A stretch of DNA of 64,000 nucleotides from a phage, in the sequence record PQ374922.1. One strand, given 5' to 3'. A program made the position numbers and the translations under genes. Below the pieces are notes generated by a model. That model saw only the letters and a program-made list of their open reading frames with translations. It ran no database searches and was not told where the DNA came from. Of this stretch, positions 3,191 to 55,466 are shown one piece after another. Each line of letters begins with the position of its first letter. Within the stretch, counting starts at the first letter, position 1.

Positions 3191-3220
3191 GTTTACATCT
3201 ATGAAAATGCAGTATATTAT
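3191..3220 (+). promoter_or_regulatory. T4-type early (sigma70-like) promoter
   Basis: A-rich upstream tract, -35 GTTTACA, about 17-nt spacer, -10 TATATT/TATTAT, roughly 70 nt upstream of the 3289 gene. Confidence 0.45.
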
Positions 3221-3288
3221 GTTCTCACTACACAGTCAGAACAACAATATGCCGCGGATACGGTCTTAATAACGAAAGGGTTTTTATT

Positions 3289-4125
3289 ATGTCATATATT
3301 CTTCATGTGGATTCTGGAACCAAAATTGAAATTGAAGGCAAAGACGTTGCGGCTATCCAGGCTGAAATCAAAGAAGCAGGTCTGATCATCGGAAACGTTA
3401 CCCTGCGCCGTATGGTTGAAGGTGTTCTTCAGGCTGCCAACGGCTTCGAACTGATTGAAGGTCTGAGCGCTGAAGAGAAGGAAGAAACTCAGCAGGCTCT
3501 GGCGCAAGCCCAAGAGCAAGCCCAAGCTGAAGTATCGCTGAAAGTCGCTGAAACTATTGATGCTGAAGCACCGATCTCTGCCGATGCATGTGAAGCCCCA
3601 GTGTCCGACGCCCCGGTAGACGCGGTTGAAGATGCAGTCAACGCGGCGCTGGAAGAAGGTAATCAGCCGTCCGACGCGAAAATCGGTTCCTTGGCGTCTT
3701 CTATGCTGAAAGAAGCATCGAAGGGTAAGACCCTGACCCCGCAGGCAGCGCTGGTAGAGCGTAAACGCCGTCACACCAAACGTGAGGAAATGGTTGACTT
3801 GGCTCGCGCTTCTAATCACGGTCCGGTCTTGGCGGCGATTGAAGCTGGTGTTGTCCCCGGCGTGTTCCTGAGCTACGTGAACCCAGACATGCGTTGGTTC
3901 CAGTTCCCGGTCACCGAACTGGCTAACCCTGAAAACCTTCACGCTCGCACCAATACGTATGTCGACGTTGCGCCTATCGTTTCCGGTGGCTGGGGCTTCA
4001 GTCTGTACGTGAACGGCAAGTCCTTCACCAAACGTCAGAAGATCAAAGAGTCTGATGCTGAGTCTCTGGTTAAGGCGATCAATGAATGGCTTCCACAGGC
4101 TCTGGCTGAAGCGAAAGCTGTGTAA
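3289..4125 (+). CDS. Hypothetical protein with central Ala/Gln/Glu-rich low-complexity linker (278 aa)
   Basis: ATG with upstream GAAAGGG; two globular segments separated by an AQAQEQAQAE linker. Confidence 0.55.
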   Translation: MSYILHVDSGTKIEIEGKDVAAIQAEIKEAGLIIGNVTLRRMVEGVLQAANGFELIEGLSAEEKEETQQALAQAQEQAQAEVSLKVAETIDAEAPISADACEAPVSDAPVDAVEDAVNAALEEGNQPSDAKIGSLASSMLKEASKGKTLTPQAALVERKRRHTKREEMVDLARASNHGPVLAAIEAGVVPGVFLSYVNPDMRWFQFPVTELANPENLHARTNTYVDVAPIVSGGWGFSLYVNGKSFTKRQKIKESDAESLVKAINEWLPQALAEAKAV

Positions 4126-4154
4126 ATTTAAGTTCAGAAACTGTTCAAAAGATG

Positions 4155-4185
4155 AAGGGGCTGCTATAATAGCAGCTCCTTTTGT
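4155..4185 (+). terminator. Hairpin with TATAAT in the loop plus T-run (terminator and/or early-promoter stem-loop)
   Basis: ggggctgc-TATAAT-agcagctcc followed by TTTTGTTTATT, between the 3289 gene and the kinase gene. Confidence 0.5.
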
Positions 4186-4200
4186 TTATTGGAGCAGTTT

Positions 4201-4860
4201 ATGTCCTACTCCCTGAAGGGGTTGATGAAGCGCCCCGTCCACACATTCTTTAAACCACCAGTCGTAAAGGGGATCTATCCAGCACGAGGGCAAATCTACT
4301 ACGTCAAAGGCTCCAATGGTAGCGGTAAATCCACTGTACCGTCTCAGCTGGCGGAGAGGGATCCTCAGGCGTATGTCGTGACCCATAACGGCAAGGTAAT
4401 GCTGACTGTCTGTCCTTCGTTCAACGTGGTCTGTATCGGTAAATATGACAAGTCGAAGTCCAAGGGGGTTGATTCCCTGAAGGACACTGAGCAGATGTTG
4501 TTCGCGTTGTCTATTGCTGACCAACCAGAATACTTGAAATATGATGTGATTTTCGAAGGTATCATTCCATCCACATTATTGAGTTCTTGGATCCCCCGCC
4601 TGACGCGCCCACCACGTGAATTGGTTGTGCTCTTTATGGACACTCCCCTTGAAACGTGTATCTCCCGCGTTAAATCACGTAACGGTGGTGTGGAATTCAA
4701 TGAAAGTCTGGTGGTCGAGAAGTGGGAGAGAGTTCATGACCATCGTCAACGACATAAAGACTTGTTCCCTACGGTAGCTGCGGGTATGATGAAGTCTCAC
4801 GGCCTAACGGTAGACCAGGCTGTGATGGCATTCCTCTGTCGTGATTTTGGGAGTATCTGA
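4201..4860 (+). CDS. P-loop NTPase/kinase of unknown specificity
   Basis: Walker A GSNGSGKST near residue 40; ATG at 4201 with GGAGCAG RBS; stop overlaps the start of the next gene (TGATG). Confidence 0.65.
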   Translation: MSYSLKGLMKRPVHTFFKPPVVKGIYPARGQIYYVKGSNGSGKSTVPSQLAERDPQAYVVTHNGKVMLTVCPSFNVVCIGKYDKSKSKGVDSLKDTEQMLFALSIADQPEYLKYDVIFEGIIPSTLLSSWIPRLTRPPRELVVLFMDTPLETCISRVKSRNGGVEFNESLVVEKWERVHDHRQRHKDLFPTVAAGMMKSHGLTVDQAVMAFLCRDFGSI

Positions 4861-5906
4861 TGGAAATCAAAGCAATTAACAACAATGACATGTTGAAGCA
4901 GGCTGTCTTGGCTATCCGTGAATTCGGGATCGAATCTGATCCTGGTAATGCTGAAATCAATACTGATAGCACCCGCTTCCTTGATGGTGTGACTATCACT
5001 GTTTCCGATATTCGTGACCGCTGGCTCTCCGTTGAAGGTCGCAACTCATCGGCTATCGCTGCCATCGGCGAGACCTTCTGGGTGTTGTCAGGTCGCAACG
5101 ACATAAAGTTCCTGTCACGCGTATTGCCTCGCGCTGCTAACTTTTCGGATGATGGGGTAACATGGCGAGCTGCTTATGGTCCGCGTCTGTACGCCCATGG
5201 CCAGCTGGATAGCGTTATCAACCGCCTGCGCAAGAACCCAAACACTCGCCAGGCGTACCTCACTATTTATGATCCGGCTTTGGATTCGGATGCTGGTCTG
5301 GCGAAGTTCAGCGAGAGCGGCGAAGCGAAGACCAAGGACATGGTGTGTAACCTGGCTCTGTTGTTCGCCATCGTTGAAGGTCGTCTGAACCTGACGGTCA
5401 TCAATCGCTCACAGGATGTTCTGTGGGGGATGAGTTCAATAAACTTCATTGAGTTCTCTATTCTTCAGGAAGTGATTGCTCGGGTGCTGGACGTTGACGT
5501 CGGTCAGTACAAGCTATTCTCTAATAATCTTCATTACTACAACAATGAAGTCAGCCAGAAGCAGCTGGGAAAGATCACGAAGGACACCAAAGTAGAAGCT
5601 GGGTTCATCAACTCCATGATTCACTTCACGAACGTGACCAACCAGAACCATATCCGCAATCTGTTCACTGGTGTGCTTCATCACTGTGATATCGGCAGCC
5701 CGTGGGAAACTGTGGTCGCCCACCTGAAGGAATATGATGCTGATCGTGGCCTGATTGTACAGATGGCGTACTGTCTGCACTGCAAACTGAACGAAAAGCT
5801 CATTAACCTGGACCTGATTCAGGATCATGGCTTGAACACCGCGCTCACGCATTCCCCGGTTGACCGCAAGATCATTGATCCTAAGTTCCTGGAAGGTGTA
5901 GTATGA
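4860..5906 (+). CDS. Thymidylate-synthase-fold pyrimidine C5 hydroxymethylase-like enzyme (gp42-like, divergent)
   Basis: TS-fold motifs: ETFWVLSGRNDIKFL (cf. ELLWFIKGSTNAKEL), RQAYLTIYDP, candidate catalytic Cys163 in DMVCNL, then 20 residues to RSQD as in TS (R166/D169). The canonical PCH and PFNIAS motifs are not conserved and there is a roughly 100-aa C-terminal extension. Confidence 0.7.
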   Translation: MEIKAINNNDMLKQAVLAIREFGIESDPGNAEINTDSTRFLDGVTITVSDIRDRWLSVEGRNSSAIAAIGETFWVLSGRNDIKFLSRVLPRAANFSDDGVTWRAAYGPRLYAHGQLDSVINRLRKNPNTRQAYLTIYDPALDSDAGLAKFSESGEAKTKDMVCNLALLFAIVEGRLNLTVINRSQDVLWGMSSINFIEFSILQEVIARVLDVDVGQYKLFSNNLHYYNNEVSQKQLGKITKDTKVEAGFINSMIHFTNVTNQNHIRNLFTGVLHHCDIGSPWETVVAHLKEYDADRGLIVQMAYCLHCKLNEKLINLDLIQDHGLNTALTHSPVDRKIIDPKFLEGVV

Positions 5907-6472
5907 TGTATCCAAATCTTGAATTCTTTACGGGGCGCAAGCGCTCCGGTAAGGACTTCTGTTTGGAGTCCCTGATCAGTTATCACCACTTACAGGGTGA
6001 TATGGACATCCAGCGCCTTTCGTTCTCGGATGAACTGCGCCGTGTGGCCAACTACATCTACCCATGGCTCCCAGCGGAGGTAGAGGATGCCGTGAAGGAC
6101 GTTCCTTACGTGCACCCTGATAACCCCAAGGGTTTAACTCCACGGCAGATCTGGCTTCATCTAGGCAGCGATACGGGCTTGCGTTACGTACAACCCGATC
6201 TGTTCCTGGCATTCTTCAAGCGCTTCCAGCTTCCTCTGGTAGAGCAGAACCCCCACGTTCATTATATCGTGAGCGATCTGCGTACCCCTCAGGAATATGA
6301 ATGGGCGCTGAGTACGAAATGTCCTATCACCCGTATTTCAAAGGCCGACCGTGCTGGTATCATAGAGGACGATATAGAGGCTTTCATTGACCAAATGAAA
6401 GTGGACTACGAATTCCTCAATCCATTTGATGGTTGGGAACCGTTCGTTAAATTCTACGGAGAACGTAAATGA
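5903..6472 (+). CDS. 1: Deoxynucleoside monophosphate kinase (T4 gp1-like)
   Basis: FFTGRKRSGKDF (cf. T4 gp1 FLSGVKRSGKDT) and HYIVSDLRTPQE (cf. YYIVPDTRQDHE); ATGA overlap with the upstream gene. Confidence 0.8.
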   Translation: MMYPNLEFFTGRKRSGKDFCLESLISYHHLQGDMDIQRLSFSDELRRVANYIYPWLPAEVEDAVKDVPYVHPDNPKGLTPRQIWLHLGSDTGLRYVQPDLFLAFFKRFQLPLVEQNPHVHYIVSDLRTPQEYEWALSTKCPITRISKADRAGIIEDDIEAFIDQMKVDYEFLNPFDGWEPFVKFYGERK

Positions 6473-7023
6473 TCACAGCAGGGCATATCAAAAGCCTGCT
6501 CGAACTCCAAAAGGCCACTAACGTGGCCTACTTTGGGGAAGAGTGGAAGAATGTATGGAGTCAGAACGCAGTCATCAACTCTATCTATCGTGAGTGGGCA
6601 GAGTTCCTTGATGAAACCACCCGTGACTGGAAGGTTTATGGCAACGACATCGGGTTTGATCATACGAACGCAGTTTATGAACTGGTGGACGTGGTACACT
6701 TCATGTTGTGCTTCATCCTTGTGGACCGCACCAAAGGTGAGATCGAAGAAGAATTTGAAGTCCTTAGTAATCGCGAATTCACCCCATCTGCTTTGGGTGT
6801 TGTAGGGCATCGCAATGTTACGTACCGCCTTGGGCAATTCATGAACGATCCTTGCGTTGAGACTCTCATGTTCTTCCTGTCGTCTGCGTGTTCTTATATG
6901 GAGATCGACATTGAGACTTACATACTGGCACACAAACGCAAGAACGATCGCAATCGCCTGCGTGCTGCTGGTGGCGCGGATTACGATAAGTCCGCAGAAA
7001 CCCCTCTGACCCTGGAGTTCTAA
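6469..7023 (+). CDS. All-alpha NTP pyrophosphatase (dCTPase/dUTPase gp56-like or MazG-like)
   Basis: Acidic helical pattern EWAEFLDETTRDW...YELVDVVHF typical of all-alpha NTP-PPases; ATGA overlap with gp1. Confidence 0.5.
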   Translation: MITAGHIKSLLELQKATNVAYFGEEWKNVWSQNAVINSIYREWAEFLDETTRDWKVYGNDIGFDHTNAVYELVDVVHFMLCFILVDRTKGEIEEEFEVLSNREFTPSALGVVGHRNVTYRLGQFMNDPCVETLMFFLSSACSYMEIDIETYILAHKRKNDRNRLRAAGGADYDKSAETPLTLEF

Positions 7024-7565
7024 TGTTTACAGTCGTCGTTTCATACCATGCGGAGAACGCTGCTCAGGCATCCTCCAAATTCGCCGAGCACATCATCGGC
7101 GGCGGACATAATGTATTCCTTACTGAATACAACAGGCCTGTTAAACCGGGCGACGGTCTTTCGGCGACTGTTACGCATAAGATCGCCAGCGAGCAACCAG
7201 AGTCTCTGTTCAGGATGATCGAAGAGTATGCCGGTGGTGGCACCAAGATACCAGATGAACTGGTAGACGTCTATTTTGAAGGCTCGATCTATTACATCCA
7301 CGCTATGCCAAAGGATGTAACCATTGAACAGATGATGTATATCCTGAATATAGCACTGAACACTGCGTGCATCAACCGCACGAACTACAACAATCTGCGC
7401 AATATGTACCTAACCGACCGGCATAATGACGCATCGTCGCTTGTTGAGACAATGTCCCTGAAGAGCATCCAAGAGGCGGTTAACATTTTGTCCCAGAAGG
7501 TTATGGGTGTAGAATTATTAACGACGATCAACAATAAAGAGGAAGTGAAATGGCCAGTTCATTAA
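7023..7565 (+). CDS. Hypothetical protein (180 aa)
   Basis: ORF translationally coupled (TAATG) to the upstream gene; no motif recognised. Confidence 0.5.
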   Translation: MFTVVVSYHAENAAQASSKFAEHIIGGGHNVFLTEYNRPVKPGDGLSATVTHKIASEQPESLFRMIEEYAGGGTKIPDELVDVYFEGSIYYIHAMPKDVTIEQMMYILNIALNTACINRTNYNNLRNMYLTDRHNDASSLVETMSLKSIQEAVNILSQKVMGVELLTTINNKEEVKWPVH

Positions 7566-8635
7566 TGGACCGCATGCTGAAGGTTGCTAAGAAACACGAT
7601 GACCAGGCTTCAGTGCTGTCCAAATCCGACGCTCTGGAACCGTCTATCATCTGTTCTACTGGTATTCCCCTGATCGATATCGCATGGTCTGGGCGTATTG
7701 ACGGCGGTCTGATCTCCGGTATCAAGATGATGGTGGGTGATTCCCGTACCTTCAAAACGATGTTCGGTCTGGTAGACGTCAAGGCGTACATGGACAAGTT
7801 CCCTGATGCTATCTGCGTCTTTGCGGACTCAGAAAAGGGTGCCAACGCCGATTACTGGACCTCTATGGGCATTGACATGGACCGCGTCCTGTACGTACCG
7901 ATCGACAACGTTGAACAGACCAAGATCCGCTTGCTGCAGATCCTACAGGAAGTCAAGAAAGGCGACCATGTTATAATCTTCATCGACTCTATCAGCCAAC
8001 TTCCCTCCACCAAGGAAGTTGAAGATGCGATCAAAGGGAACGACACTCAAGACATGACCCGCGCCCGTGCCCTTAACAGCTTCTGGCGTGTCATGACTCC
8101 CGAAATCAACAGCAAAAATCTCGTGTGTGTTTGGATCAACTCCTATTACGATGAGATCGGCAACCAGTATGCCGAGCCCAACATCAAAGGCGGCAAGCAG
8201 GGCTTCTTATCCTCCAACTTGATCTGGTTTATCACCCGTTCTCAGGTGAAGGAAGACAAAGATCTGCTGGGCTGGAACTTCAACATAAGCATCATGAAAG
8301 GTCGCCATGTCAAAGAGAAAGCCAAGCTCCCTGTGACGGTACTGTACAACGGTGGTATTGATCGCTGGAGCGGCCTGCTTGAGATCGCTCGTGCTCTGGG
8401 TTATGTTGATATGCCGTCTTCCGGTTGGTATGTGCGTACAGCCAAGGGTGGTTTCGATCCTGAGAAGGAAAAGAAATATCAAAAGCGTCAGATGGATGAT
8501 GATTTCTGGTATCCGCTGCTGGAGAATGTCAACTTCGCCGATGACGTGAAGAAAATGTTCGGTGTTTCTAACGGTACTGTTATGCCTGCTAACATGCTGG
8601 AGCAAATGGACCATGTTATCAACACAAGCGAATAA
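7550..8635 (+). CDS. uvsX: UvsX RecA-like recombinase
   Basis: Strong similarity by eye to T4 UvsX: FADSEKGANADYWTSMGIDMDRV, IIFIDSISQL, DMTRARALNSFWRVMTPEI. Confidence 0.9.
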   Translation: MASSLMDRMLKVAKKHDDQASVLSKSDALEPSIICSTGIPLIDIAWSGRIDGGLISGIKMMVGDSRTFKTMFGLVDVKAYMDKFPDAICVFADSEKGANADYWTSMGIDMDRVLYVPIDNVEQTKIRLLQILQEVKKGDHVIIFIDSISQLPSTKEVEDAIKGNDTQDMTRARALNSFWRVMTPEINSKNLVCVWINSYYDEIGNQYAEPNIKGGKQGFLSSNLIWFITRSQVKEDKDLLGWNFNISIMKGRHVKEKAKLPVTVLYNGGIDRWSGLLEIARALGYVDMPSSGWYVRTAKGGFDPEKEKKYQKRQMDDDFWYPLLENVNFADDVKKMFGVSNGTVMPANMLEQMDHVINTSE

Positions 8636-8942
8636 CAGTGGAGGGGGAGGAGACTCCCCCAATAACTACACAATCATCGACCCTGGTGCTGATCAGCTGG
8701 CGATCATCAAGATCACTTCTGGCAAATTCCGTGGTGTTCAATTCCGGTTCGGCAAGGTGGCCATCAACGAAGTGGACGGCGAACCCCGCCTGTCTTTCGT
8801 GACTGATATATTGAAGAAACCATTGCGTCTGATGTTTGTGAATTTGAAAGAAAATGACTTGTTCACTGAGGTGTCAGGGGATATCCTTGTAGAACTCATG
8901 CAGCGTAATGCTCAGGAATATAATAAATTTTTGGTGGGATGA
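8562..8942 (+). CDS. Hypothetical protein overlapping the 3' end of uvsX (occupies the gp40 position)
   Basis: ORF in an alternative frame beginning 74 nt inside uvsX; hydrophobic N-terminus MFLTVLLCLLTCW. An in-frame GTG further downstream could be the true start. Confidence 0.35.
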   Translation: MFLTVLLCLLTCWSKWTMLSTQANNSGGGGDSPNNYTIIDPGADQLAIIKITSGKFRGVQFRFGKVAINEVDGEPRLSFVTDILKKPLRLMFVNLKENDLFTEVSGDILVELMQRNAQEYNKFLVG

Positions 8943-8954
8943 CCGAGGGGTCCT

Positions 8955-9437
8955 ATGTTAACACAACAGTCTCTTAAAGAAATTCTGCATTACGACGAAG
9001 ACACTGGGTGGTTTACATGGCTGACGGATCGTGGTGGTACTGCCAAAGCCGGAACAAGAGCTGGGTCTTTAAAACCTGACGGATACAGGGTTATAAGAAT
9101 CGGCGAGAAGAAGCATTTAGAACACAGGTTGGCATTTCTCTATAAAACTGGTTCATGGCCAAAGAAATTGGTCGACCACAAAAATCGTATAAGAGACGAC
9201 AACCGCTGGTTGAACCTTAGAGAATCTAATGAAAGCCAGAATGCCGTCAACACAGATTTGTATAGCCACAACACCACAGGCGCGAGGGGTGTATTTCGAT
9301 ACAAGAATAGATGGTGTGTGCAAATCAGAGTTAATGGGAAATATAGATCGTTTGGGTATTACGATGAATTCGAAGAAGCAAAGGAAATGGCGAACAAAGC
9401 CTACAAAGAATTGTTCGGAGAATTTTATCAAGGTTAG
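8955..9437 (+). CDS. HNH homing endonuclease with AP2-like DNA-binding domain
   Basis: GYRVIRIGEKKHLEHRLAFLY...VDHKNRIRDDNRWLNLRE (HNH) and GVFRYKNRWCVQIRVNGKYRSFGYYDEFEEA (AP2-like); inserted between the uvsX block and gene 41. Confidence 0.85.
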   Translation: MLTQQSLKEILHYDEDTGWFTWLTDRGGTAKAGTRAGSLKPDGYRVIRIGEKKHLEHRLAFLYKTGSWPKKLVDHKNRIRDDNRWLNLRESNESQNAVNTDLYSHNTTGARGVFRYKNRWCVQIRVNGKYRSFGYYDEFEEAKEMANKAYKELFGEFYQG

Positions 9438-9477
9438 TGTTTGGTCTCTGTCAAACCAGATAATTTAGGAACGCAAT

Positions 9478-10902
9478 ATGTTACTCGAATCTGTCGTGCT
9501 TTCACAGTTGATTTACAATGAAGATTACCAAAGAAAGATCCTGCCGTACCTGAAAGCCGATTATTTTGACAACGAAGGCGAAAAGGTCATCTTTGGTCTG
9601 ATTGACAGTTATACCTCAGAGTACAATGCCCGCCCGTCTGTCGAAGCACTATCTATAATTCTTGAACGGACAAAGCTGAACGAATATGTGTTTGACCAGG
9701 CGGTATCTGCCCTGGAGAACATCAACGACAACACCTTCAATGAAGAGTGGCTGGCGAAGGAAACCGAGGCTTGGGCGCGGCAAAAGGCCGTACACAACGC
9801 AATCAAGACCGCCGTTAACATCTACGGTGACGAGAAGCGCAAGGACGAGATGAACAACATCCCGACCATGTTGCAGGAAGCCCTGGCGATCCGGTTTGAT
9901 TCATACCTCGGTCACATCTATTGGGAGATGGCGGCAGAGCAGTATGACCACATGAACTCCAACGAGGCCAAGATCCCGTTCGCAGTTGAGATATTCAATA
10001 AGGCGACACGTGGTGGCGTTGGTAAGAAGACACTGAACATCGTAACAGGTGCGATCAACGCAGGTAAGACCACAACGCTGATTGACCTGACCGCAGGGTA
10101 CTCTGAGCAGGGGCTGAACGTCTTTGTCTTCACCCTTGAAGTGGCTGAGAACGTCTGGCGACACCGTCTTGATGCCCGTATCATGCGTCGCGACTTTGAG
10201 TCTTTAGAGAAACTCACAAGGCACGAGTATATTGCAACGATAGAGAAGCTCCGCAGTCGCCAAGATGGTGCGCCCAAGGGTGATATCGTCATCAAGGAAT
10301 ATCCTTCCGGTACTGGACACACAGGTTTATTCCGCCGCGATATCCTTGAGTACATCCAGGCAACTGGTCGTGCTCCTGATGTTATCGTTATTGACTATCT
10401 TGGCGAAGCTGCTTCCTCGCGCCTGCCTGCCCACCTGATGCAGAACACGAACGTCTATTACACGTCTGTGGCTCGTGAGTTTCGTGCGCTGGGATTTGAG
10501 TTTGATGTCCCTGTATGGACTGGTATGCAGTTCAATCGTGAGAATCAGAATAGCACTGATGGTGGAATCAGTGATTTGGCAGATGCTATCGGTATTCCGA
10601 AGGTGGCCGACTTCATCATGGCATTCTATGCTCCTGACGAACTGGCGGCGGTCAAGAAAGCCCGAGCCTCAATACTCAAGAACCGTTATGCCAACAAGCA
10701 GAAGCTGAAATCATTCCTGTTTGGTATGGACCAAGACAAACAGATCCTGTTTGACCTGGACTGGAATGAAGTTAAGAAGGACCTGACTGAGGCTGAGGCC
10801 AAATATGTCGAAAACGTACACATCAAACATGACCTCAACAAGTCCGGGGCTGCTGTCAGCGATGAGCAGAAAGCCCAAACGGTCAATAATTGGAAATTCT
10901 AG
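9478..10902 (+). CDS. 41: Replicative DNA helicase (gp41, DnaB-like)
   Basis: 474 aa; Walker A GAINAGKTTT; DnaB-like architecture; synteny with uvsX. Confidence 0.9.
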   Translation: MLLESVVLSQLIYNEDYQRKILPYLKADYFDNEGEKVIFGLIDSYTSEYNARPSVEALSIILERTKLNEYVFDQAVSALENINDNTFNEEWLAKETEAWARQKAVHNAIKTAVNIYGDEKRKDEMNNIPTMLQEALAIRFDSYLGHIYWEMAAEQYDHMNSNEAKIPFAVEIFNKATRGGVGKKTLNIVTGAINAGKTTTLIDLTAGYSEQGLNVFVFTLEVAENVWRHRLDARIMRRDFESLEKLTRHEYIATIEKLRSRQDGAPKGDIVIKEYPSGTGHTGLFRRDILEYIQATGRAPDVIVIDYLGEAASSRLPAHLMQNTNVYYTSVAREFRALGFEFDVPVWTGMQFNRENQNSTDGGISDLADAIGIPKVADFIMAFYAPDELAAVKKARASILKNRYANKQKLKSFLFGMDQDKQILFDLDWNEVKKDLTEAEAKYVENVHIKHDLNKSGAAVSDEQKAQTVNNWKF

Positions 10903-44187: not shown

Positions 44188-45423
44188 TCAGCGTTTCAAG
44201 AGTGTCATGAGGTTGACGCTGCTGGACTTCGGCTTGTCCTCAACCTTGCGCACAGGCATCTTCAGGTTCGTACATACCTCGGACGGTTCCCAGCGCGTAC
44301 CCTTTTGCAGGTGCCAGATATGCAGAGGAACACCAGTCTCAAAGAACACAGGCATCTTCCACTTCTGGACGCCTGGAACGTGCCCTACAGGAGCCTTTTC
44401 GCACAACAGGGTATCTGGCAGCCAGAGCGAACGGGCTTCCCAGAGCGCTGCGCAGGAGTATTCAGGCCAGACGCGTTCCATGTAGTCTATCTCATCCCAG
44501 GTACGCTCTGCGTCCCACCCGATGTAACGGGTATTCTTCAGTCGGAAGAATTTCTTCAGCCAACAAGCGCCGGAGGTTTCAAAGTTCAGGCGGTTGATGA
44601 ACGTCAGGTGCCCGAACTCAGCCACACAATCCTGGAACGCCTGCTCAAGGTCGGCCTCAAGGATGTCACACTCTTCATCCGTGATAGCACAACCGTTGAT
44701 CTTTTTCTTCCCGTGTTTAGTCACCCAATCGTCACGGTTGGACAAGAACGCCGCGCCATTACGGTTGGACTCGCTTCCATCACGATCACGCAGCATGAAG
44801 CCAGGGACGTCAATGGTGTATTCGTTCCCGAAGACCATGTTCAGGGCTTCCAGGAAGTTCCAGGCGCTCAGGCGACCGAAGTATTTCCAGGACATCGCCG
44901 TGTCCCACAGCTGGGTGAATTGTTCTGTCTTATCGATGCACACCAACATCCCACGGAAAGCGTCATATTGAGTACGGCCAGCCAGCCAGTCAATATAGGA
45001 CTGAACACACGGGATCATCTTGGACTTGCGGTAGCGACAGTCGGTATCGAATCGCATGCGTTCAAAGTTCAGATTATACCAATCAGAGAAGCGCTGCATC
45101 TCTTCCTTAGACTGAGGCGGCACAGGGAACTCACTGTAGATCGTCCACGGTCCGACGGCGTTATAGCAACAACCCCACAGGAATGCCATCCAGATCTTGC
45201 GCTCGACTTTCTGTTCGAGGCTGATGCCTTCAGTGACTTCGATCGCATAGTCCATCAGACGCATCTGCTGGTTGTGCTCTTCTGTGTAGGACAGCGCCTC
45301 CACCCAAGCCTTGAGCAGGTACATGCGATTCTCAGGCTTGCGATAATCAACAGCCAGGTCAATCGGGTACTTCCATTCAGCCGGAGGCGTATAGCCCGTC
45401 GGCATTTTAGATAAATGATGCAT
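44188..45423 (-). CDS. Hypothetical enzyme-sized protein (411 aa, Trp/aromatic-rich)
   Basis: Long ORF, last in an operon with the P-loop kinase; no nucleotidyltransferase KxDG or other motif recognised. Confidence 0.6.
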   Translation of the reverse strand: MHHLSKMPTGYTPPAEWKYPIDLAVDYRKPENRMYLLKAWVEALSYTEEHNQQMRLMDYAIEVTEGISLEQKVERKIWMAFLWGCCYNAVGPWTIYSEFPVPPQSKEEMQRFSDWYNLNFERMRFDTDCRYRKSKMIPCVQSYIDWLAGRTQYDAFRGMLVCIDKTEQFTQLWDTAMSWKYFGRLSAWNFLEALNMVFGNEYTIDVPGFMLRDRDGSESNRNGAAFLSNRDDWVTKHGKKKINGCAITDEECDILEADLEQAFQDCVAEFGHLTFINRLNFETSGACWLKKFFRLKNTRYIGWDAERTWDEIDYMERVWPEYSCAALWEARSLWLPDTLLCEKAPVGHVPGVQKWKMPVFFETGVPLHIWHLQKGTRWEPSEVCTNLKMPVRKVEDKPKSSSVNLMTLLKR

Positions 45424-45784: not shown

Positions 45785-45984
45785 TTTGGTTCCTTGAATA
45801 TTTTGTAACCAGCAGCGCCGATAGACATCACCGCGCCAATACAGTACATCACAGTCACGTTCAACTTCTCTGAGGTTGTTAAGTCCAGAGGGGTGAAATG
45901 ATAGGCTAGGGCAGTACACATTGAAACGGCTGCCATAACCAGACCAATGAACAACAGATAATTAGACAACCGTTTCATGATCAC
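45781..45984 (-). CDS. Small membrane protein (67 aa, two TM helices)
   Basis: LLFIGLVMAAVSMCTALAY and VMYCIGAVMSIGAAGY; coupled to neighbours on both sides. Confidence 0.45.
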   Translation of the reverse strand: MIMKRLSNYLLFIGLVMAAVSMCTALAYHFTPLDLTTSEKLNVTVMYCIGAVMSIGAAGYKIFKEPK

Positions 45985-46898
45985 CCCTTCTTCATCAGGT
46001 CAAGGAGAGAGCGCGACGCTGCCTTCGTTGCTTCTGGCTGGGCGCTCGCCTTGGTTTTAGTTTTGGATGCCTTCTGCGGCTTCTCAGGGACTCTGTGCGC
46101 CAAAGGATCATGGCCGCCAACCTCACGAGTCATCGGATTGGTTTCACAGTAGGCGTAGAAGTCTTTGGTGTGTATGTCAACACCACGCAGTTCAGAGCGT
46201 ATCTGATGACAAATCGCATTACCCACAACCCACAGCGGGGCGTCGAACGGTAGTACCGCCAACTCGGACTGCTGTTTGGTCGTGAACTCCTGGGTGTTGG
46301 CATCCGGTGATTTATACAGGATATCCTGTCCGCTGTAATCATCAACAGCCACAGTGAAGCCCAGCGCCAGCATTTCGGCCTTCGACTTCTCAAACTCCTT
46401 GTAGTAAGATTCGTTGCGCGACCAGCCGGAGTTCCCTGCTTCTTTACCAGATCGACCACGGATACGAGCATCGTACTGATAGCGGTCGGGGTACGCAAAG
46501 TACAGCAGCGCCAATGATTCAATCGGATAGTTCTTGAACATCCATTCAGGACGCCATTTGTCCGACAGCATGAGAGGTTCGCCCTCGCACACCAGAGTGT
46601 ATCCCTGAACCAACCAGCACTTGATTAGATCACGAGCAATATCGCCTGAGCCTGTAGCAGCATGGATTGCATCCATTGAAGTCCAGGAAGCCAGGCCGGA
46701 TTTGTTAGACACGGTGTACTGTCCAACGAAGATTAACTTCAGCTCTCCGAACTTCAAGCCAAACGGGCGAGTCTTGTCACCAACGGTGTAGGTCAGTTCG
46801 GTAGGCTCCAGCTTCGTACGGAGCCATTCGATGAACTGGACCACTCTCGTACCCTTGCCCGTGGCCGAGGTGCCTTTCACTACAATTATTTTAGCCAT
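45981..46898 (-). CDS. P-loop kinase-like protein (305 aa) with Lys/Ala/Thr-rich C-terminal tail
   Basis: N-terminal Walker A VKGTSATGKGT; no HAD DxDGT motif, so not a T4 Pnkp-type bifunctional enzyme. Confidence 0.6.
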   Translation of the reverse strand: MAKIIVVKGTSATGKGTRVVQFIEWLRTKLEPTELTYTVGDKTRPFGLKFGELKLIFVGQYTVSNKSGLASWTSMDAIHAATGSGDIARDLIKCWLVQGYTLVCEGEPLMLSDKWRPEWMFKNYPIESLALLYFAYPDRYQYDARIRGRSGKEAGNSGWSRNESYYKEFEKSKAEMLALGFTVAVDDYSGQDILYKSPDANTQEFTTKQQSELAVLPFDAPLWVVGNAICHQIRSELRGVDIHTKDFYAYCETNPMTREVGGHDPLAHRVPEKPQKASKTKTKASAQPEATKAASRSLLDLMKKG

Positions 46899-47577
46899 TT
46901 AATATTCTCCAACCGAGACATGTTTTAGCCCTACCTTTCAAGAGATTCGTTATATTACCGGAAGGGAGGCCATATTGAAGTTCCATGTCGCACCTCCTTA
47001 ACTCAACGATGCGACCATCTTTGTGCTGCCATTTGTAAATCTTTTCATCGCGACCAGGACCAATGTCTATCAGACCAAGAGCATGCAGCCTCTTCCTAGT
47101 TTCCCCTCCACGCGTTTGAGATTCAGAGGAAGGTCTTGGTGGTTTGGGGATCTTCCCTTCTGACATCAATTTGCTTATGATCTTACCCTTTCTGGCTTGT
47201 GCTTCAGGGGTGAGTCTTGGTGGAGGTTTAATCTTACCTTCAGCGATCAAACGTTTGCGGGTTGCGGCGCTCTTTGCGGATGACTCTGGCGTGGCCAATG
47301 GAGGCTTTCCACCCCCGACGACCATGTTGTAGCACCACCCAGAGTCAAGGATCTCCTGGCAGACCAGTTCAGACTCTATCTGAAGGATAACCGAATCTTT
47401 CCCTCGGAACAGAACTTCAAACTTGAACTGGTCTTCACCGTATTTCTTGAACGCTCGTTGTAATGCAATGCTTCCCTGACCACACTTATGCTCAGCCAAC
47501 CGCCTATCCGGTTCTGAGGTGACACCGACATAGAATTTATGATTGACGAGATTCGTTATCAGGTAGAGCGATAGCAT
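46891..47577 (-). CDS. GIY-YIG homing endonuclease (Seg-like)
   Basis: YLITNLVNHKFYVGVTSEPDRRLAEHK...FKKYGEDQFKFEVL (GIY-YIG); C-terminal repeated GKIKPPPRLTPE / GKIPKPPRPSSE DNA-binding-like modules. Confidence 0.85.
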   Translation of the reverse strand: MLSLYLITNLVNHKFYVGVTSEPDRRLAEHKCGQGSIALQRAFKKYGEDQFKFEVLFRGKDSVILQIESELVCQEILDSGWCYNMVVGGGKPPLATPESSAKSAATRKRLIAEGKIKPPPRLTPEAQARKGKIISKLMSEGKIPKPPRPSSESQTRGGETRKRLHALGLIDIGPGRDEKIYKWQHKDGRIVELRRCDMELQYGLPSGNITNLLKGRAKTCLGWRILNG

Positions 47578-47891: not shown

Positions 47892-48671
47892 CTATCGGAC
47901 GTATTGATAATGACTAATCAGGCGGTTAACCACTTCAACAATATTGTAATTCAGGAAGTCGAAGTGATTCTGGCCTTCTACTGGTTTAATATAAAGCATG
48001 TCTTCCGAATTCGAAAGATCCAGTTTTTCATAATTGCCCTGAGGAACAAAGATAACAAAGATGTTGTTCAGACCACACGGCTCGACATACTTCGGATTGT
48101 CATCAATCAGGACATCGCCTGCCAGCAGATGCTTTTCGTCGGTGCTGACAAACCCGTTGAAGATACCAGGGAACTTGTCGTAGACAAACTGGCGCTTGCT
48201 GCGCTCGTGTTCCGGCTCGCACTTCGACACCGCAACGAATTCAACATTGTCGAAATCTTCAAGCAAGATATCCTTCAGATTTACCAGGAACTCGTAAGCG
48301 CCGGGGAGCGGGTTCATCTTGGCGTACAAGTCAGGGCGACGCCACCAATCCATAGGATCGTTACCGCTTGGCACACGTTGTTTGTGCATCCCCAATTGGA
48401 CTTCATGGTATAGCCACGCCGGATGCGCACGTTCACGCATCAGAATAGCCAGGTCGCCAGCATGGGACATATAACACTCTTTGGTAATCGGCTGGAACTG
48501 GTATGACTTATGTTCCCCCGTAGCGATAGCAGCGGCGGCGATGTTCTCTTCGTTGAACCACTGCACCCAAGGGGAGAGGCTGTCGACCAACGTCAGGTCA
48601 ACATCCACGAGAACGCGATACAGGCCACCGACCTTTGATTTCATATCATAGATACAAACCAGGTTGTTCAT
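47892..48671 (-). CDS. HAD-superfamily phosphatase, 5'(3')-deoxyribonucleotidase-like
   Basis: HAD motif I VLVDVDLTLVD (DxDxT) near the N-terminus. Confidence 0.55.
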   Translation of the reverse strand: MNNLVCIYDMKSKVGGLYRVLVDVDLTLVDSLSPWVQWFNEENIAAAAIATGEHKSYQFQPITKECYMSHAGDLAILMRERAHPAWLYHEVQLGMHKQRVPSGNDPMDWWRRPDLYAKMNPLPGAYEFLVNLKDILLEDFDNVEFVAVSKCEPEHERSKRQFVYDKFPGIFNGFVSTDEKHLLAGDVLIDDNPKYVEPCGLNNIFVIFVPQGNYEKLDLSNSEDMLYIKPVEGQNHFDFLNYNIVEVVNRLISHYQYVR

Positions 48672-49071: not shown

Positions 49072-52071
49072 TCAACCTTTCTTCTTTTGCATCATGGCAA
49101 GAAGGTTCACACGGCGCTTGTGTGACCAGCCGACCACGTCGAGGATAGACTGAATCGGATCAATGAAGGACTTCTCAAAGGCCGCCTGATAATCCACCCA
49201 TTTGCCCAGACCAAGCTCCTCGGGGAAGAACTCAGGATATGCAAAGTAGTTCTGCCCAAACGGGTTGCCCGGCTTCAACAACACCATCTGTACCTTATCA
49301 CCCGACTCGATCATCGGTAGACCCAGATCTTCGTTCTTCTCAACCAGACGGTTGTAGCCCACACACGCCTTGGCAGCAAAATGAGCACCAGATATAAACG
49401 AGCCGTCAGCAGCCACACACTTCTCTATGTCGGACACGCCTGACGCCTTGGCGATATCGTCTACAGAGAGTTTCATGTACTCCTCTTTGTACTGGGAGAT
49501 GAGCGTCTGTACTTCCTCTTCGGTGCCGAGTAGGATCTTCTCATAGCACTTGACAAGGCGCTCACGACACCATTCCGGCGTGGTGGACTTGCGGGCTTCC
49601 AGACCTTTGAACTTGATCTTCGGCTTCTCGTACTTGATACCCTCACTGTCGTACACGGCCATGGCATACATCTTCTTGGCTCGCCAGACAGCGGCTGACG
49701 CAATGACCTCACGCTCCCACACCATGCGCTGTTCAAATCCGTTCATGGTGTTACACAGAAGCTGTGCCCACTCATTGGTCTTCGGCTGGTAGTTGTCTTT
49801 GATCCATTGGTCGATATTATCAACCATAGCATGATGGTCAGTAACATCAGGCCACAACTGCTTGACAAGACGCTCAATGCAGATGTAGTTGGAGTCGGTA
49901 TCCCCTGCGATGACGAAGTCCTGGCCTGTTGTACCACACAGCTTGTTCAGATAGTCATCAGTGTAACGCTTGTTCCACTTGTTGATCAGCTGACCGGATG
50001 TGGTGATGGCTTCGGCAATGTTGAGGTTGAAGTACTCTTTGAACCAGACGTTCGAGATAGCGCCATAACCTGCGTTCATCAAGATCTTCAGACCTTGCTG
50101 TAGGGTATCTTGAGCGACGCCCAGGTCTTCCCACTTCTTCATCACTTCGGTCAGGGCATCAAGATCAATGTTCTTGTGCTCTTCATACCACTCTGGGTCA
50201 TAGTAGCGAGACTTTATGGCAGACTCAAGATGGAAGTCGCCCTTCGACATCTCTTTACACCAACCAGCCCACTGCTCATACTTCAGACCCTTGGCCTTCT
50301 CTACTTTACGGTCGCTGTAGATACCACGCATGATTTCAGACAGGAACGACATCTTCTCGTTGCTGAAGAATTGAACGTTCGGCGTGAACGACACGTTGTA
50401 GCGGCGCAGGGTTTCAAAGTGGAACTCACCCAGGGCAACCAACTCATCAACAACCTGCAGGCGTTCGTCAACCGCACGCAACATCTTGTCGTGAAGGGCT
50501 TTCATCAACCGACGTTTGTGCATCGGCGTTGCCATGTTATTCATCTGAGCAGCCAGCTCTTCACACATAGCCTCAATAATCTCGCGGCGCTGGTGTTTGT
50601 CGCCAACGATAGTCTCTGGACCGAGGTTGTACTGCTGTATGATGTGAGGATACAGGGAGTTCAAATCTTCCGAGAAGACCCAGAAGTAGATTCCTGGTGT
50701 CACATCCATGACGTATGCACCCTCAAAGTCGGTCGGACCATCGTATACACGCTGGATCTTAGGCACTATCCCCTTCTCGTACAGGCGATAGTAGCACATG
50801 GCCAGCCACGGAGCCACAGTGCCCAGACCGTCTTCATAGTTGGACTTGGTGCGGTAGGCCAGGACGAACATCAGCTGGAGCAGGCGCAGCTTCTGTTCAA
50901 GTCGCCATACCAGCTTAACGTCTTTGATACCATATCGGGTGTGTTTGCAGTAGTCGTTGAAGTACAGATCAAAGAGCGACTTGCTCTCACTGTAGTCCAT
51001 CTTCTTCTCACCCAGCTCACAATACGCAATCCAGTCAAGAGAGTAGCGTTCACGGGTGGTGTACGTGTGTTTCTTGTAGATCTGCATATAATCGAGCATA
51101 GGGCAACCCACGAACTGATACGTCGTGATATCGCCCTTCTTATCGCGAATGATACGCTTCTTAATGATACCCCAAGGACTGAGGCGCGACGTTTCAGCCT
51201 CACCCAGAACCTGATTCATGCGCTCAACAAGATAAGGGCTATCAAACGTCTCAATGTTCCAGCCTGTCCAGCCGTCGAACTGACGCTGTGACCAGAAGTC
51301 AAGGAACGAGCGCAGCAGATCTTGTTCGGTGGTGAACTCCTGATAAACAACCTCAAGACCGCCGATCTCTTTGTCTTCGGTGTCGTATGCGAATTTGTTA
51401 CGATCTTTGGCACAGGGCATACCCCAGACCATGAACTTATTGGTCGCCATATCCTGAAGCTGGATCAGGGTAATGGGGAACGCCGCATTCATGTCTTGGG
51501 TGATCTTGCCGTTGCTGTCAATGATAGGGAACTGATCAGTGACGTTGTTGCTGATGAAAGAACCAGGGAAGTGCTCACGGACAAAATCATGGTTGGCCAG
51601 AACTTGTTTATGGAAGCGGCGAATGCGCGCCTCATTCCCTTTGAACGTCTGCTGCTCAATGGTTGGGTGAGGGAATGGACCTTTGGTCATCTTTCCATCT
51701 TTCCACCCGGCGGAGAACACTTCGATATCGAGGTTAGCAATATGGATGTTGGAATAATCCGGCTCAATCTTTCCAGGAAAGCTATGGGCGATGAACTGGT
51801 ATGCATAATCGGTCTGCCCGTAAATGGCCGCACCCTGGACTTCCTTGTACTCTTCAAGATAGTTGTCAGCGTCACGCATGGAAGGGAACTGCTTGGCTAC
51901 CAGGGGTTCATTGAGAAGGCCGACCTTTTCAACATTTGAATAGTCAGCCGTGGGTAAATAGAGAGTGGGTTCGAATTTCTTTTTCAACAGACGGCGATTA
52001 CCCATGTCATCTGCAATTCGAATCAACAGGTCATTGCCCCTGCGGGCAACGTTCGTATAGAAAACGGTCAT
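49072..52071 (-). CDS. 43: DNA polymerase (gp43, family B) with 3'-5' exonuclease domain
   Basis: Exo I ANLDIEVF, Pol motif A DLNSLYPHII, motif C AGDTDSNYIC; overall collinear with T4 gp43. Confidence 0.95.
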   Translation of the reverse strand: MTVFYTNVARRGNDLLIRIADDMGNRRLLKKKFEPTLYLPTADYSNVEKVGLLNEPLVAKQFPSMRDADNYLEEYKEVQGAAIYGQTDYAYQFIAHSFPGKIEPDYSNIHIANLDIEVFSAGWKDGKMTKGPFPHPTIEQQTFKGNEARIRRFHKQVLANHDFVREHFPGSFISNNVTDQFPIIDSNGKITQDMNAAFPITLIQLQDMATNKFMVWGMPCAKDRNKFAYDTEDKEIGGLEVVYQEFTTEQDLLRSFLDFWSQRQFDGWTGWNIETFDSPYLVERMNQVLGEAETSRLSPWGIIKKRIIRDKKGDITTYQFVGCPMLDYMQIYKKHTYTTRERYSLDWIAYCELGEKKMDYSESKSLFDLYFNDYCKHTRYGIKDVKLVWRLEQKLRLLQLMFVLAYRTKSNYEDGLGTVAPWLAMCYYRLYEKGIVPKIQRVYDGPTDFEGAYVMDVTPGIYFWVFSEDLNSLYPHIIQQYNLGPETIVGDKHQRREIIEAMCEELAAQMNNMATPMHKRRLMKALHDKMLRAVDERLQVVDELVALGEFHFETLRRYNVSFTPNVQFFSNEKMSFLSEIMRGIYSDRKVEKAKGLKYEQWAGWCKEMSKGDFHLESAIKSRYYDPEWYEEHKNIDLDALTEVMKKWEDLGVAQDTLQQGLKILMNAGYGAISNVWFKEYFNLNIAEAITTSGQLINKWNKRYTDDYLNKLCGTTGQDFVIAGDTDSNYICIERLVKQLWPDVTDHHAMVDNIDQWIKDNYQPKTNEWAQLLCNTMNGFEQRMVWEREVIASAAVWRAKKMYAMAVYDSEGIKYEKPKIKFKGLEARKSTTPEWCRERLVKCYEKILLGTEEEVQTLISQYKEEYMKLSVDDIAKASGVSDIEKCVAADGSFISGAHFAAKACVGYNRLVEKNEDLGLPMIESGDKVQMVLLKPGNPFGQNYFAYPEFFPEELGLGKWVDYQAAFEKSFIDPIQSILDVVGWSHKRRVNLLAMMQKKKG

Positions 52072-54272: not shown

Positions 54273-55466
54273 TCAGGAAGGGGTGAATTCGTTTACAGGT
54301 ACTGCTTCGGGGATAGCCAGTTCAGGACATGCTGCCTTCATCGGCTCGATGTATGGCTTGCTACCCACAATCCAGAACAGAGTGTTCTCGTTGAGCAACT
54401 CGGGCTTGTGTTGCTGAACCCAGGTCATGACCTTGCCTTCATAGCGAGGGTGCAACTCAATATCACCCCACTGATATTCCATCAGGTCATTGTAACGAAC
54501 CCAATTAGTGGTATGAAGATCCCAATGGTGTACCTCAAAGCGAGGAAGCACGACCTCTGGCTCTTCCTTCTGCCTGATACCACTTAGGAGGCCAGCCAGC
54601 GAAACGCTCTTAGAGGCATGCTGAAGCTCCTTCTTGCCGTGTACATAGTCTGGGTTGTCGTGATAGCGACGGGTGAAGTCGACAATGTGCGGCAGATTGG
54701 CATGTTTGCCGATGATGCGCAGACGGCTCTCAATGAAGTCCAGGCGGTTCGGACCGATGCCAATCAGATACACACGCTTCAGATTAGGCTTCGGATGCAT
54801 TGCCAGCCCGGTCAGAATGCTTGTGCAAGAGTTGCACGATCCGGCTGGGATAATCAGATCGGTAATATGGTCAGGGATGTTGGCAACCTGCTCGCCACCC
54901 AGCATATGGAAGCCAGCGATGCGCTCAGGAGAATGCGCTGTATGGTCGAGGGTGATACCATATTCCAGATAATACGCCTTTGGATTCTGTTGTTCGATCA
55001 ACTTCTTACAGCGCGGCTGGATCGTGCTGTTGTAACCCGAGCCGACGAAGTTGAACTCACTACCAAACCAGGCTGACATTGCCACCATGTCGTGGTTCAT
55101 ACAGGTGGTGGGTTTGGTCGCTCCGAGTACAGTGGTTGTCTTGCCGCCGAAGTGCCGAGAGACTGCTGTCGCCATAGGGGACTGCGGACTACCAACGACA
55201 GTACCATGGATGATGTCAGGGGAGCCTCCGGCCTTGAGGTGCTCAACCATCAACCAGATGGCCTGGCGGAGTTTGCTGCCGTTGATGCCCTGCTGGCCAT
55301 TTGCATAATTGGATAGCGGCGCAAAATAATCTTCACGCTTGAACCAGACCTGCTGGTTGGTTTCGGGGTTGACGACAAGTTCGCACGGGGTGTGCTTGTA
55401 GAGATAATCTTCCCAATGGACCAGGTTGCGGTCGAGGGAAAGGGTATCGAAGATGGTCTTGTTCAT
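54273..55466 (-). CDS. PLP-dependent enzyme of the tryptophan-synthase-beta fold (ACC deaminase / D-cysteine desulfhydrase-like)
   Basis: WFKREDYFAPL...NGSKLRQAIWLM (cf. DcyD FIKRDD...GGNKLRKLEFL, with Lys as the PLP-binding residue) and Gly-rich IIPAGSCNSCTS (cf. IPVGGSNALG). Confidence 0.6.
   Translation of the reverse strand: MNKTIFDTLSLDRNLVHWEDYLYKHTPCELVVNPETNQQVWFKREDYFAPLSNYANGQQGINGSKLRQAIWLMVEHLKAGGSPDIIHGTVVGSPQSPMATAVSRHFGGKTTTVLGATKPTTCMNHDMVAMSAWFGSEFNFVGSGYNSTIQPRCKKLIEQQNPKAYYLEYGITLDHTAHSPERIAGFHMLGGEQVANIPDHITDLIIPAGSCNSCTSILTGLAMHPKPNLKRVYLIGIGPNRLDFIESRLRIIGKHANLPHIVDFTRRYHDNPDYVHGKKELQHASKSVSLAGLLSGIRQKEEPEVVLPRFEVHHWDLHTTNWVRYNDLMEYQWGDIELHPRYEGKVMTWVQQHKPELLNENTLFWIVGSKPYIEPMKAACPELAIPEAVPVNEFTPS

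Follow-up and report, generated by a model that had tools for sequence, protein, structure and literature searches.

A five-gene operon upstream of uvsX in an Agtrevirus-like phage, with a predicted role in the supply and activation of 5-hydroxymethyl-deoxyuridine for thymidine hypermodification

Gene Content and Layout of the Locus

The window analysed here, a 64,000-nucleotide stretch of phage DNA (sequence record PQ374922.1), carries five consecutive open reading frames (ORFs) on the + strand, at 4201–4860, 4860–5906, 5903–6472, 6469–7023, and 7023–7565, which were located in the ORF list and the raw sequence and are numbered here as genes 1 to 5. Profile searches returned a strong family match for each of them, and to judge from the sequence all five are real genes. 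A first-pass annotation, made from the letters alone, had described the block as a P-loop kinase, a divergent thymidylate synthase (TS)-fold enzyme other than ThyA, a deoxynucleoside monophosphate (dNMP) kinase, an all-alpha nucleoside triphosphatase, and an unknown gene, and the family matches agree with this anatomy. The block is very probably the supply and activation operon for thymidine hypermodification of the Ackermannviridae, the final base being 5-(2-aminoethoxy)methyl-deoxyuridine (5-NeOmdU), and orthologous to Vi01_061c–057c of phage ViI. The novelty implied for it at first is absent, as the gene order is the same as that of Vi01_061c–057c, with the characterised gp67; the operon is an already described system.

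The four junctions, read from the DNA in gene order, are TGATG, ATGA, ATGA, and TAATG, which bears out the coupled stop/start overlaps proposed earlier, and gene 5 in turn overlaps uvsX by 16 nt, with the uvsX start at 7550. In the annotated genome of ViI, with 95 same-strand junctions, overlaps of 1 or 4 nt make up 19% and overlaps of any length 36%, so that single overlaps are ordinary; the five-gene block is the sole run of four consecutive 1- or 4-nt junctions among the 95, all other runs being of two or fewer, and by chance such a run has a naive probability (p^4) of 0.0013 per position, or about 0.1 expected. ViI and divergent relatives from metagenomes have the same junction overlaps as the block. 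A terminator scan of 3200–9600 found no + strand terminator between the block and 9600, and the transcription unit therefore probably continues past 7565 into uvsX. The five genes are confirmed, but an end of the unit at 7565, as in the first-pass annotation, is not obvious. Such close packing probably ensures joint expression of the five products and UvsX.

The region shares 99.6% nucleotide identity with Escherichia phage YX22, 97–98% with several Agtrevirus-like coliphages, 91–92% with the Shigella phage Ag3 and the Salmonella phage SKML-39, and 89% with Dickeya Limestonevirus phages. The taxonomy of the relatives is Ackermannviridae, Aglimvirinae, Agtrevirus, and the source phage is, by these matches, an Agtrevirus-like member of the Ackermannviridae.

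The 5-Hydroxymethyl-deoxyuridine DNA Kinase

Gene 1 (4201–4860, +) encodes a predicted kinase (5-HMUDK) of 5-hydroxymethyl-deoxyuridine (5-hmdU) in DNA. Its product matches Pfam PF18748 (HMUDK_HMUD1) with an E value of 5.9e-109 and 362.5 bits against a cut-off of 27, residues 14–208 covering profile positions 1–195 of 196, and has a Walker A motif, GSNGSGKS, at residues 37–44. Over 219 aa it shares 87.7% identity with Vi01_061c of ViI (YP_004327432), that is, gp67, and the two genes have the same position and the same overlaps beside the dUMP hydroxymethylase gene. It has been reported, with biochemical evidence, that ViI gp67 phosphorylates 5-hmdU in DNA (PMC8989533). The likely start of gene 1 is the ATG at 4201, because it is preceded by GGAG 6 nt upstream and gives an N-terminus matching that of ViI gp67; the TTG at 4189 is less likely. 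The label 'terminase small subunit', which comes from PHROG800, was rejected for this gene, since PF18748 is a far better fit and the genuine small terminase of ViI adjoins the large terminase elsewhere.

The same label is widespread. 5-HMUDK genes are mislabelled 'terminase small subunit' via PHROG800 in RefSeq and Pharokka-style records, for instance NC_015296, NC_049509, NC_013693, and PP931173. In the record of phage ZQ1, the 5-HMUDK is given as 174 aa rather than 219, since its annotation begins at an internal Met.

The Predicted TS-Fold Hydroxymethylase

Gene 2 (4860–5906, +) encodes a TS-fold protein whose C-terminal extension is helical, as it is in MilA, the CMP 5-hydroxymethylase of mildiomycin biosynthesis, and is predicted to be a deoxyuridine monophosphate (dUMP) hydroxymethylase. 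It matches PF00303 (E 1e-15, 58 bits, cut-off 24.3) and PHROG3676 (E 4e-183) and is 77% identical to ViI Vi01_060c. The NCBIfam ThyA equivalogs all fail, with scores of 16–58 bits against cut-offs of 108–427, the best being 57.8 against 327. The earlier description of the enzyme as one that keeps the catalytic Cys163 and the RSxD spacing but lacks the PCH and PFNIAS motifs was confirmed on inspection: Cys163 lies in MVCN at the PCH site of ThyA, R183-S184-x-D186 is present, and SSINFIEF stands at the PFNIAS site. The AlphaFold (AF2) model, built on 54 homologs, has a TS fold with a confidence score (pLDDT) of 94, and the C-terminal extension, put at about 100 aa in the first pass, comprises about 108 aa (residues ~241–348), which the model shows as helices at a pLDDT of over 90.

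In the family alignment E71, W74, Y106, C163, R183, S184, D186, G190, N195, H225, and Y227 are invariant. N195 aligns with the TS specificity Asn (Asn177 of E. coli TS), and the residue that had been called ambiguous (Ile-Asn) is thus resolved as Asn195, invariant across the 54 homologs. An Asn is also found at this position in td, in the SPO1-type enzyme, and in the enzyme of a PaMx11-like Pseudomonas phage, whereas MilA and one phage enzyme annotated as dCMP hydroxymethyltransferase have Asp. Because Asn rather than Asp is invariant at the specificity site, the residues indicate that gene 2 acts on a uracil, not a cytosine, nucleotide.

Comparisons by sequence and by fold place gene 2 with the hydroxymethylases rather than with ThyA. 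In the PDB, the best sequence match is MilA (5b6d, 5jnh; E 1e-17), the closest solved structure, and true TS follow at 1e-6 to 1e-9 (E. coli TS 2e-6). Foldseek aligned the model with MilA over its full length, including the C-terminal helices of the extension (351 columns, TM-score 0.71–0.79), and with TS structures over only about 260–270 columns. MilA differs in its cytosine ribonucleotide substrate, in the Asp at the N195 site, in an identity of only about 20%, and in being a bacterial enzyme of secondary metabolism. In tblastn searches, the gp29-type enzymes of SPO1/SP82G matched at 34% identity (E 5e-26) and T4-type td at 22% (E 1e-5); the nearest phage relatives outside the Ackermannviridae include those of Pseudomonas phages of apparent M6/PaMx11 kind and of SPO1/SP82G, at 33–39% identity (E 1e-26 to 1e-37). 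The locus of the SPO1-type enzyme used for comparison is the ortholog of SPO1 gene 29, and its product shares the FSDDG and TKDxPCN motifs with gene 2. Gene 2 is accordingly not an ordinary thymidylate synthase, as had been proposed, and is predicted from these comparisons to be a dUMP hydroxymethylase far nearer to the SPO1 gp29 type than to ThyA. That 5-hmdUMP is the product finds indirect support in the downstream enzymes, which need DNA containing 5-hmdU.

The hydroxymethylase-like TS subfamily also contains many fusion proteins of 470–590 aa from metagenomes (among proteins P0046–P0120, P0058, P0063, P0066, and P0077). Members were found in bacterial genomes as well, namely those of Klebsiella, Rhizobium, Paenarthrobacter, and Herbiconiux, some of them on Mb-sized contigs.

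The Predicted Nucleotide Pool Enzymes

Gene 3 (5903–6472, +) is a P-loop protein predicted to be a 5-hmdUMP kinase. It matches PHROG139, dNMP kinase, at E 1.2e-47, has the P-loop GRKRSGKD at residues 11–18, and shares 91% identity with Vi01_059c ('dnk') of ViI; no match in Pfam, NCBIfam, or the PDB reached threshold. Among the tblastn matches listed (40 of 361 phage records), homologs occur in the Ackermannviridae, in phage ΦW-14 as gene 231, which adjoins the dUMP hydroxymethyltransferase gene 230, and in one Ralstonia phage with a weak match (E 4e-4). The gene had been called gp1-like, a label that holds only remotely, through PHROG139; its P-loop may resemble that of gp1, but phmmer gave no PDB chain, that of T4 gp1 included, at E<=1, and no T4-type phage was among the tblastn matches listed.

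Gene 4 (6469–7023, +) encodes an all-alpha NTP (nucleoside triphosphate) pyrophosphatase of the dimeric dUTPase family, predicted to be a dUTPase/dTTPase. It matches PF08761 (dUTPase_2) at E 6e-9 with 36.7 bits against a cut-off of 22.9 and PHROG173 at E 3e-40, and is 61% identical to ViI Vi01_058c. In the alignment with the dUTPase of Campylobacter jejuni (1w2y; E 1e-3), the ExxE...ExxD acidic metal-binding residues (E42, E45, E71, and D74) are in register. The score against the NCBIfam dUTPase equivalog is 29.6, far under the cut-off of 300, and gene 4 is therefore a divergent member of the dimeric family.

The ACT-like Protein and the uvsX Start

Gene 5 (7023–7565, +) encodes an ACT-like protein specific to the Ackermannviridae, and had rightly been left as unknown, since only the ACT-like family PF24021 was found for it and no function emerged from the searches. 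The match to PF24021, 'Phage ACT-like domain' (ACT_phage), scores 262.8 bits against a cut-off of 27 and covers positions 1–176 of 176, and the protein is 55% identical to ViI Vi01_057c. In its model, the N-terminal half has a beta-alpha-beta-beta-alpha-beta arrangement of the ferredoxin-like or ACT-like kind, and the C-terminal helices are poorly defined. A profile search of 1.84 billion representatives gave 18 representative clusters for the family; all but three are stand-alone proteins of 157–191 aa, the exceptions being a 34-aa fragment, a 147-aa protein, and a 1702-aa protein. No informative fusion was found among the 18, the 1702-aa protein matching weakly (E 8e-6) along some 35 positions of the profile. 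Structure searches returned nothing specific, with only uncharacterised Ackermannviridae proteins from BFVD, and there was no NCBIfam match. A one-carbon link suggested by ACT matches (a glycine-cleavage repressor and a formyl-THF (formyltetrahydrofolate) deformylase) was rejected, the matches being too weak. In both divergent members examined, on metagenomic contigs, the gene 5 homolog sits between the dUTPase-like gene and uvsX.

The Shine–Dalgarno sequence and ATG of uvsX (GAGGAAGTGAAATGG) fall within the final codons of gene 5. The corresponding C-terminus, KEEVKWPVH (7535–7565), has eight of nine residues strictly invariant across the family, and because the same codons double as the ribosome-binding site and start of uvsX, this conservation likely does not reflect protein function. 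The RecA-like recombinase gene uvsX itself (7550–8635, +) was identified by PF00154 and PF21134 and is 70% identical to ViI UvsX. Gene 5 would be an accessory protein, coupled by its overlaps both to gene 4 and to uvsX. That it is an unrecognised functional component of the hypermodification system is improbable; if it is one, it may act as a small-ligand-sensing regulator of the pool enzymes, as an inhibitor of the host thymidylate synthase, or as the factor deciding between T and 5-NeOmdU.

The Rest of the Pathway in the Window

In addition to the five-gene block, the window contains on the - strand the genes for the later steps. The second 5-hmdU DNA kinase, ortholog of ViI gp243, lies at 45981–46898 (PF18747 HMUD2, E 3e-157; 84% identity). 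The serine:DNA transferase, an amino acid:DNA transferase (AADT, also aGPT-Pplase2) orthologous to ViI gp247 and assigned to the second post-replicative step, lies at 44188–45423 (PF18724 ADDT, E 1e-59; 89% identity). The pyridoxal phosphate (PLP)-dependent decarboxylase of the last step, ortholog of ViI gp226, lies at 54273–55466 (92% identity over 394 aa). The activities of gp243 and gp247 and the role of gp226 have been shown for ViI (PMC8989533). Looked for together, the 5-HMUDK, the HMUD2 kinase, the clade-2 aGPT-Pplase/AADT, the PLP decarboxylase, and the hydroxymethylase are all in the window; an ortholog of the non-essential aGPT-Pplase1 (gp160) was not found in the 64 kb. The suggestion that a P-loop kinase beside a TS homolog marks a thymidine-hypermodifying phage was a correct reading, with the gp67 ortholog and the orthologs of gp243, gp247, and gp226 all present, and of the two alternatives in the first-pass annotation the second, another pyrimidine-modification pathway, is the right one.

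The family A DNA polymerase gene lies at 49072–52071 (-) and is 86% identical to ViI Vi01_190. Between it and the second kinase gene, at 47892–48671 (-), is a gene for an NT5C-like 5'(3')-deoxyribonucleotidase (PF06941, E 1.2e-8, 35.5 bits against 24.8; 76% identity to Vi01_194), which is absent from the published hypermodification gene lists consulted in the literature. It is a plausible dTMPase candidate because the classical scheme of hmdU phages includes a dTMPase (PMC8989533).

Two homing endonuclease genes were also observed. One, of the GIY-YIG (group I intron-type) kind, lies at 46891–47577 (-) between the Vi01_195 homolog and the HMUD2 kinase, genes that abut in ViI; the other, an HNH_3 and AP2 gene at 8955–9437 (+), lies between a small ORF 3' of uvsX and the DnaB-like helicase gene. 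ZQ1, vB_CECAV_050, and ViI have no HNH-AP2 gene at this site, and there the helicase gene follows directly.

The Region Upstream of Gene 1

Upstream of the operon is a conserved G+C-rich hairpin (4154–4182, +) with a 13-bp stem, TATAAT in its loop, and a T-run downstream, followed by TTTTGTTTATT and the Shine–Dalgarno sequence of gene 1. It is the only + strand terminator-like site within 3200–9600, and the motif occurs once in the window. The intergenic region 4126–4200 is almost invariant among this phage, ZQ1, ViI, and one divergent metagenomic relative, while the flanking coding sequences diverge, and the single stem change seen, A to G, keeps the pairing as G-U. The hairpin may end transcription of the preceding gene, serve as a promoter, or act on the operon from its head as a regulatory RNA element. 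As the counts of a sigma-70 promoter scan were not above those of shuffled sequence, no promoter is claimed.

Comparison with Known Systems

The 5-NeOmdU pathway of ViI has been described by Lee et al. 2018 (PMC5889632) and Lee et al. 2021 (PMC8989533). Vi01_061c–057c comprise the same five genes in the same order upstream of uvsX, with the same 1-, 4-, 4-, 1-, and 16-nt overlaps and the same hairpin upstream of gene 1, and the proteins of genes 1–5 are 88, 77, 91, 61, and 55% identical, respectively. The second cluster is likewise shared, with gp243, gp247, and gp226 at 84–92% identity, on the - strand around the DNA polymerase gene. The two phages differ in that ViI belongs to Cvivirinae/Kuttervirus and the source phage to Aglimvirinae/Agtrevirus, in genes 4 and 5, which are the most diverged (61% and 55%), and in the homing endonuclease genes HNH-AP2 and GIY-YIG, which are extra in the source phage.

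A published scheme for pre-replicative 5-hmdU formation comprises a dUMP hydroxymethylase, a dTTPase, a dTMPase, a dCMP deaminase, a dNMP kinase, and the host nucleoside diphosphate (NDP) kinase (PMC8989533), and genes 2, 3, and 4 fit three of its roles. The same logic is found in SPO1/SP8, with the gp29 dUMP hydroxymethylase, an hmdUMP kinase, a dTTPase-dUTPase, and a dCMP deaminase, and gp29 resembles gene 2 in the Cys, the Asn, the two shared motifs, and the C-terminal extension. Unlike in the present operon's pathway, modification in SPO1 stops at 5-hmdU, and the accessory enzymes are from other families; to our knowledge, SPO1 has not been reported to encode a 5-HMUDK, an AADT, or a PLP decarboxylase.

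The PaMx11/M6 Pseudomonas siphophages, whose bases are 5-AcNmdU and 5-NedU, are similar in having a 5-HMUDK by a 348-aa TS homolog and a pool enzyme near the DNA polymerase, and ΦW-14 of Delftia, which carries putrescinyl-T, pairs the same dNMP kinase family with a hydroxymethylase. Both differ from the present system in their tailoring enzymes and final bases, lack an ACT_phage gene, and have as pool enzyme an HD/YfbR-like nucleotidase where the operon has a dimeric dUTPase. A metagenomic contig was found with a module of dCTP deaminase, TS homolog, YfbR-like protein, and kinase. Because a PaMx11-like phage and this contig hold comparable modules with other accessory enzymes, the comparison supports the idea that the supply cassette may be modular and built around the hydroxymethylase.

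The PaMx11-like phage examined is Pseudomonas phage PAKlein3 (locus L005, 392–8501), whose PaMx11-type cluster comprises an AADT, an FAD oxidoreductase, an acetyltransferase, a P-loop kinase, an HMUDK helical-domain protein, the 348-aa TS homolog, an HD/YfbR-like nucleotidase, the DNA polymerase, and a dCMP deaminase. The record labels genes of this cluster 'VFDB virulence factor', 'terminase small subunit', and 'dATP triphosphohydrolase'.

The hydroxymethylcytosine (hmC) system of T4, with gp42, gp1, and the gp56 dCTPase, is alike in that the phage prepares a hydroxymethylated pyrimidine nucleotide ahead of replication and breaks down the canonical dNTP. It is unlike the present operon in the Asp at the specificity site instead of Asn, in an NTPase of another family, in the different base, in the kinase, gene 3 showing no T4-type match among the tblastn matches listed or in the PDB search, and in the use of glucosylation rather than phosphorylation and amino-acid transfer.

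Proposed Pathway and Alternative Explanations

On homology, residues, and gene order, the following pre-replicative steps are inferred. In step 1, Cys163 of gene 2 would attack C6 of dUMP, and the methylene of methylenetetrahydrofolate (CH2-THF) would be transferred and hydrated rather than reduced, giving 5-hmdUMP. In step 2, gene 3 would convert 5-hmdUMP to 5-hmdUDP, and the host NDP kinase would form 5-hmdUTP. Meanwhile, in step 3, gene 4 would hydrolyse dUTP, and probably dTTP, to the monophosphate, the dUMP feeding gene 2 and U and T being excluded from DNA, and the NT5C-like enzyme may remove dTMP. In step 4, the phage DNA polymerase would incorporate 5-hmdU. The later steps have been shown for the ViI orthologs and are carried over here to the source phage: in step 5, gene 1 and the second kinase would phosphorylate 5-hmdU in DNA to its phosphorylated form 5-PmdU; in step 6, the transferase would exchange the phosphate for serine, giving the serine adduct O-SerT; and in step 7, the PLP enzyme would decarboxylate O-SerT to 5-NeOmdU. 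The resulting base would replace part of the thymine and block many restriction enzymes.

Published measurements on virion DNA put 5-NeOmdU at about 40% of T for ViI, CBA6, CBA120, and Vibrio phage 1.255.O, and at 16% of T for the Taipeivirus phiHS2. Ag3, SKML-39, and LIMEstone are listed as 5-HMUDK-encoding ViI-like phages and predicted to carry 5-NeOmdU, and a 2024 review describes the modification genes as conserved across the Ackermannviridae. Several points weigh against the proposed pathway. The 5-NeOmdU measurements in the literature are from Kuttervirus, Taipeivirus, and one Vibrio relative, with none found for Agtrevirus, and no published enzymology was found for the ViI-type hydroxymethylase, dNMP kinase, or dUTPase-like protein. 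Hydroxymethylation as opposed to methylation by gene 2 is not certain from sequence, gene 4 may act on dUTP alone or on dTTP too, and the PLP enzyme scores under the cut-off of the PALP Pfam model (E 3e-7). About 60–85% of T is canonical in 5-NeOmdU phages.

One alternative is that the operon supplies 5-hmdU but the final base differs from that of ViI, being either plain 5-hmdU as in SPO1 or another amino-acid adduct. In its favour, no nucleoside analysis of an Agtrevirus was found in the literature, AADT donors vary from phage to phage (Ser, Gly, and putrescine), and a GIY-YIG endonuclease gene is inserted in the second cluster; however, the AADT, the PLP decarboxylase, and both kinases are intact and 84–92% identical to the ViI enzymes, and an identical 301-Da base is made even by the much more distant Vibrio phage 1.255.O and by the Taipeivirus phiHS2, so that a different final base is very unlikely.

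It is equally improbable that the block serves housekeeping dTTP synthesis, with a divergent TS, a thymidylate or dNMP kinase, and a dUTPase, the P-loop protein being a small terminase or generic kinase. The database labels 'thymidylate synthase', 'thymidylate kinase', 'dUTP diphosphatase', and 'terminase small subunit' all point this way, PF00303 is above its cut-off, and most of the T in the virion DNA of relatives is canonical. Yet the ThyA equivalogs fall far short of their cut-offs, the PCH and PFNIAS motifs are replaced, and the TS-fold protein, whose clustering with ThyA had been named as a possible refutation, groups by sequence and fold with the hydroxymethylases. Nor is the P-loop protein a housekeeping kinase, as gene 1 scores 362 bits against PF18748 and its ViI ortholog is a proven 5-hmdU DNA kinase, and the position of the genuine ViI small terminase argues against that label too.

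A T4-like hmC module, the first alternative of the first-pass annotation, in which a dCMP hydroxymethylase, a gp1-type kinase, and a dCTPase/dUTPase would lead to hmC DNA, accords with the hydroxymethylase-like architecture of the TS fold, with a best solved relative acting on a cytosine nucleotide, and with a dNMP kinase and an NTP pyrophosphatase adjoining as in T4, but is highly improbable, as Asn195 is invariant in the 54 family members where MilA and the phage enzyme annotated as dCMP hydroxymethyltransferase have Asp, gene 1 belongs to a family of 5-hmdU rather than hmC DNA kinases, the downstream enzymes are those of thymidine hypermodification, the relatives carry 5-NeOmdU with dC reported among the canonical nucleosides, and gene 4 is of the dimeric dUTPase family, unlike T4 gp56. 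The T4 protein belongs to the trimeric dUTPase family.

Significance for Annotation and Phage Biology

The reading of the block as the supply and activation operon for 5-NeOmdU is of value for annotation, since many GenBank and RefSeq records label the operon 'terminase small subunit', 'thymidylate synthase', 'thymidylate kinase', 'dUTPase', and 'hypothetical protein'. Read correctly, the operon predicts the presence of 5-NeOmdU in the DNA of this Agtrevirus-like coliphage. The prediction bears on the sensitivity of the phage to restriction and possibly to BREX and CRISPR, on the sequencing and cloning of its DNA, and on its use in phage therapy and biocontrol.

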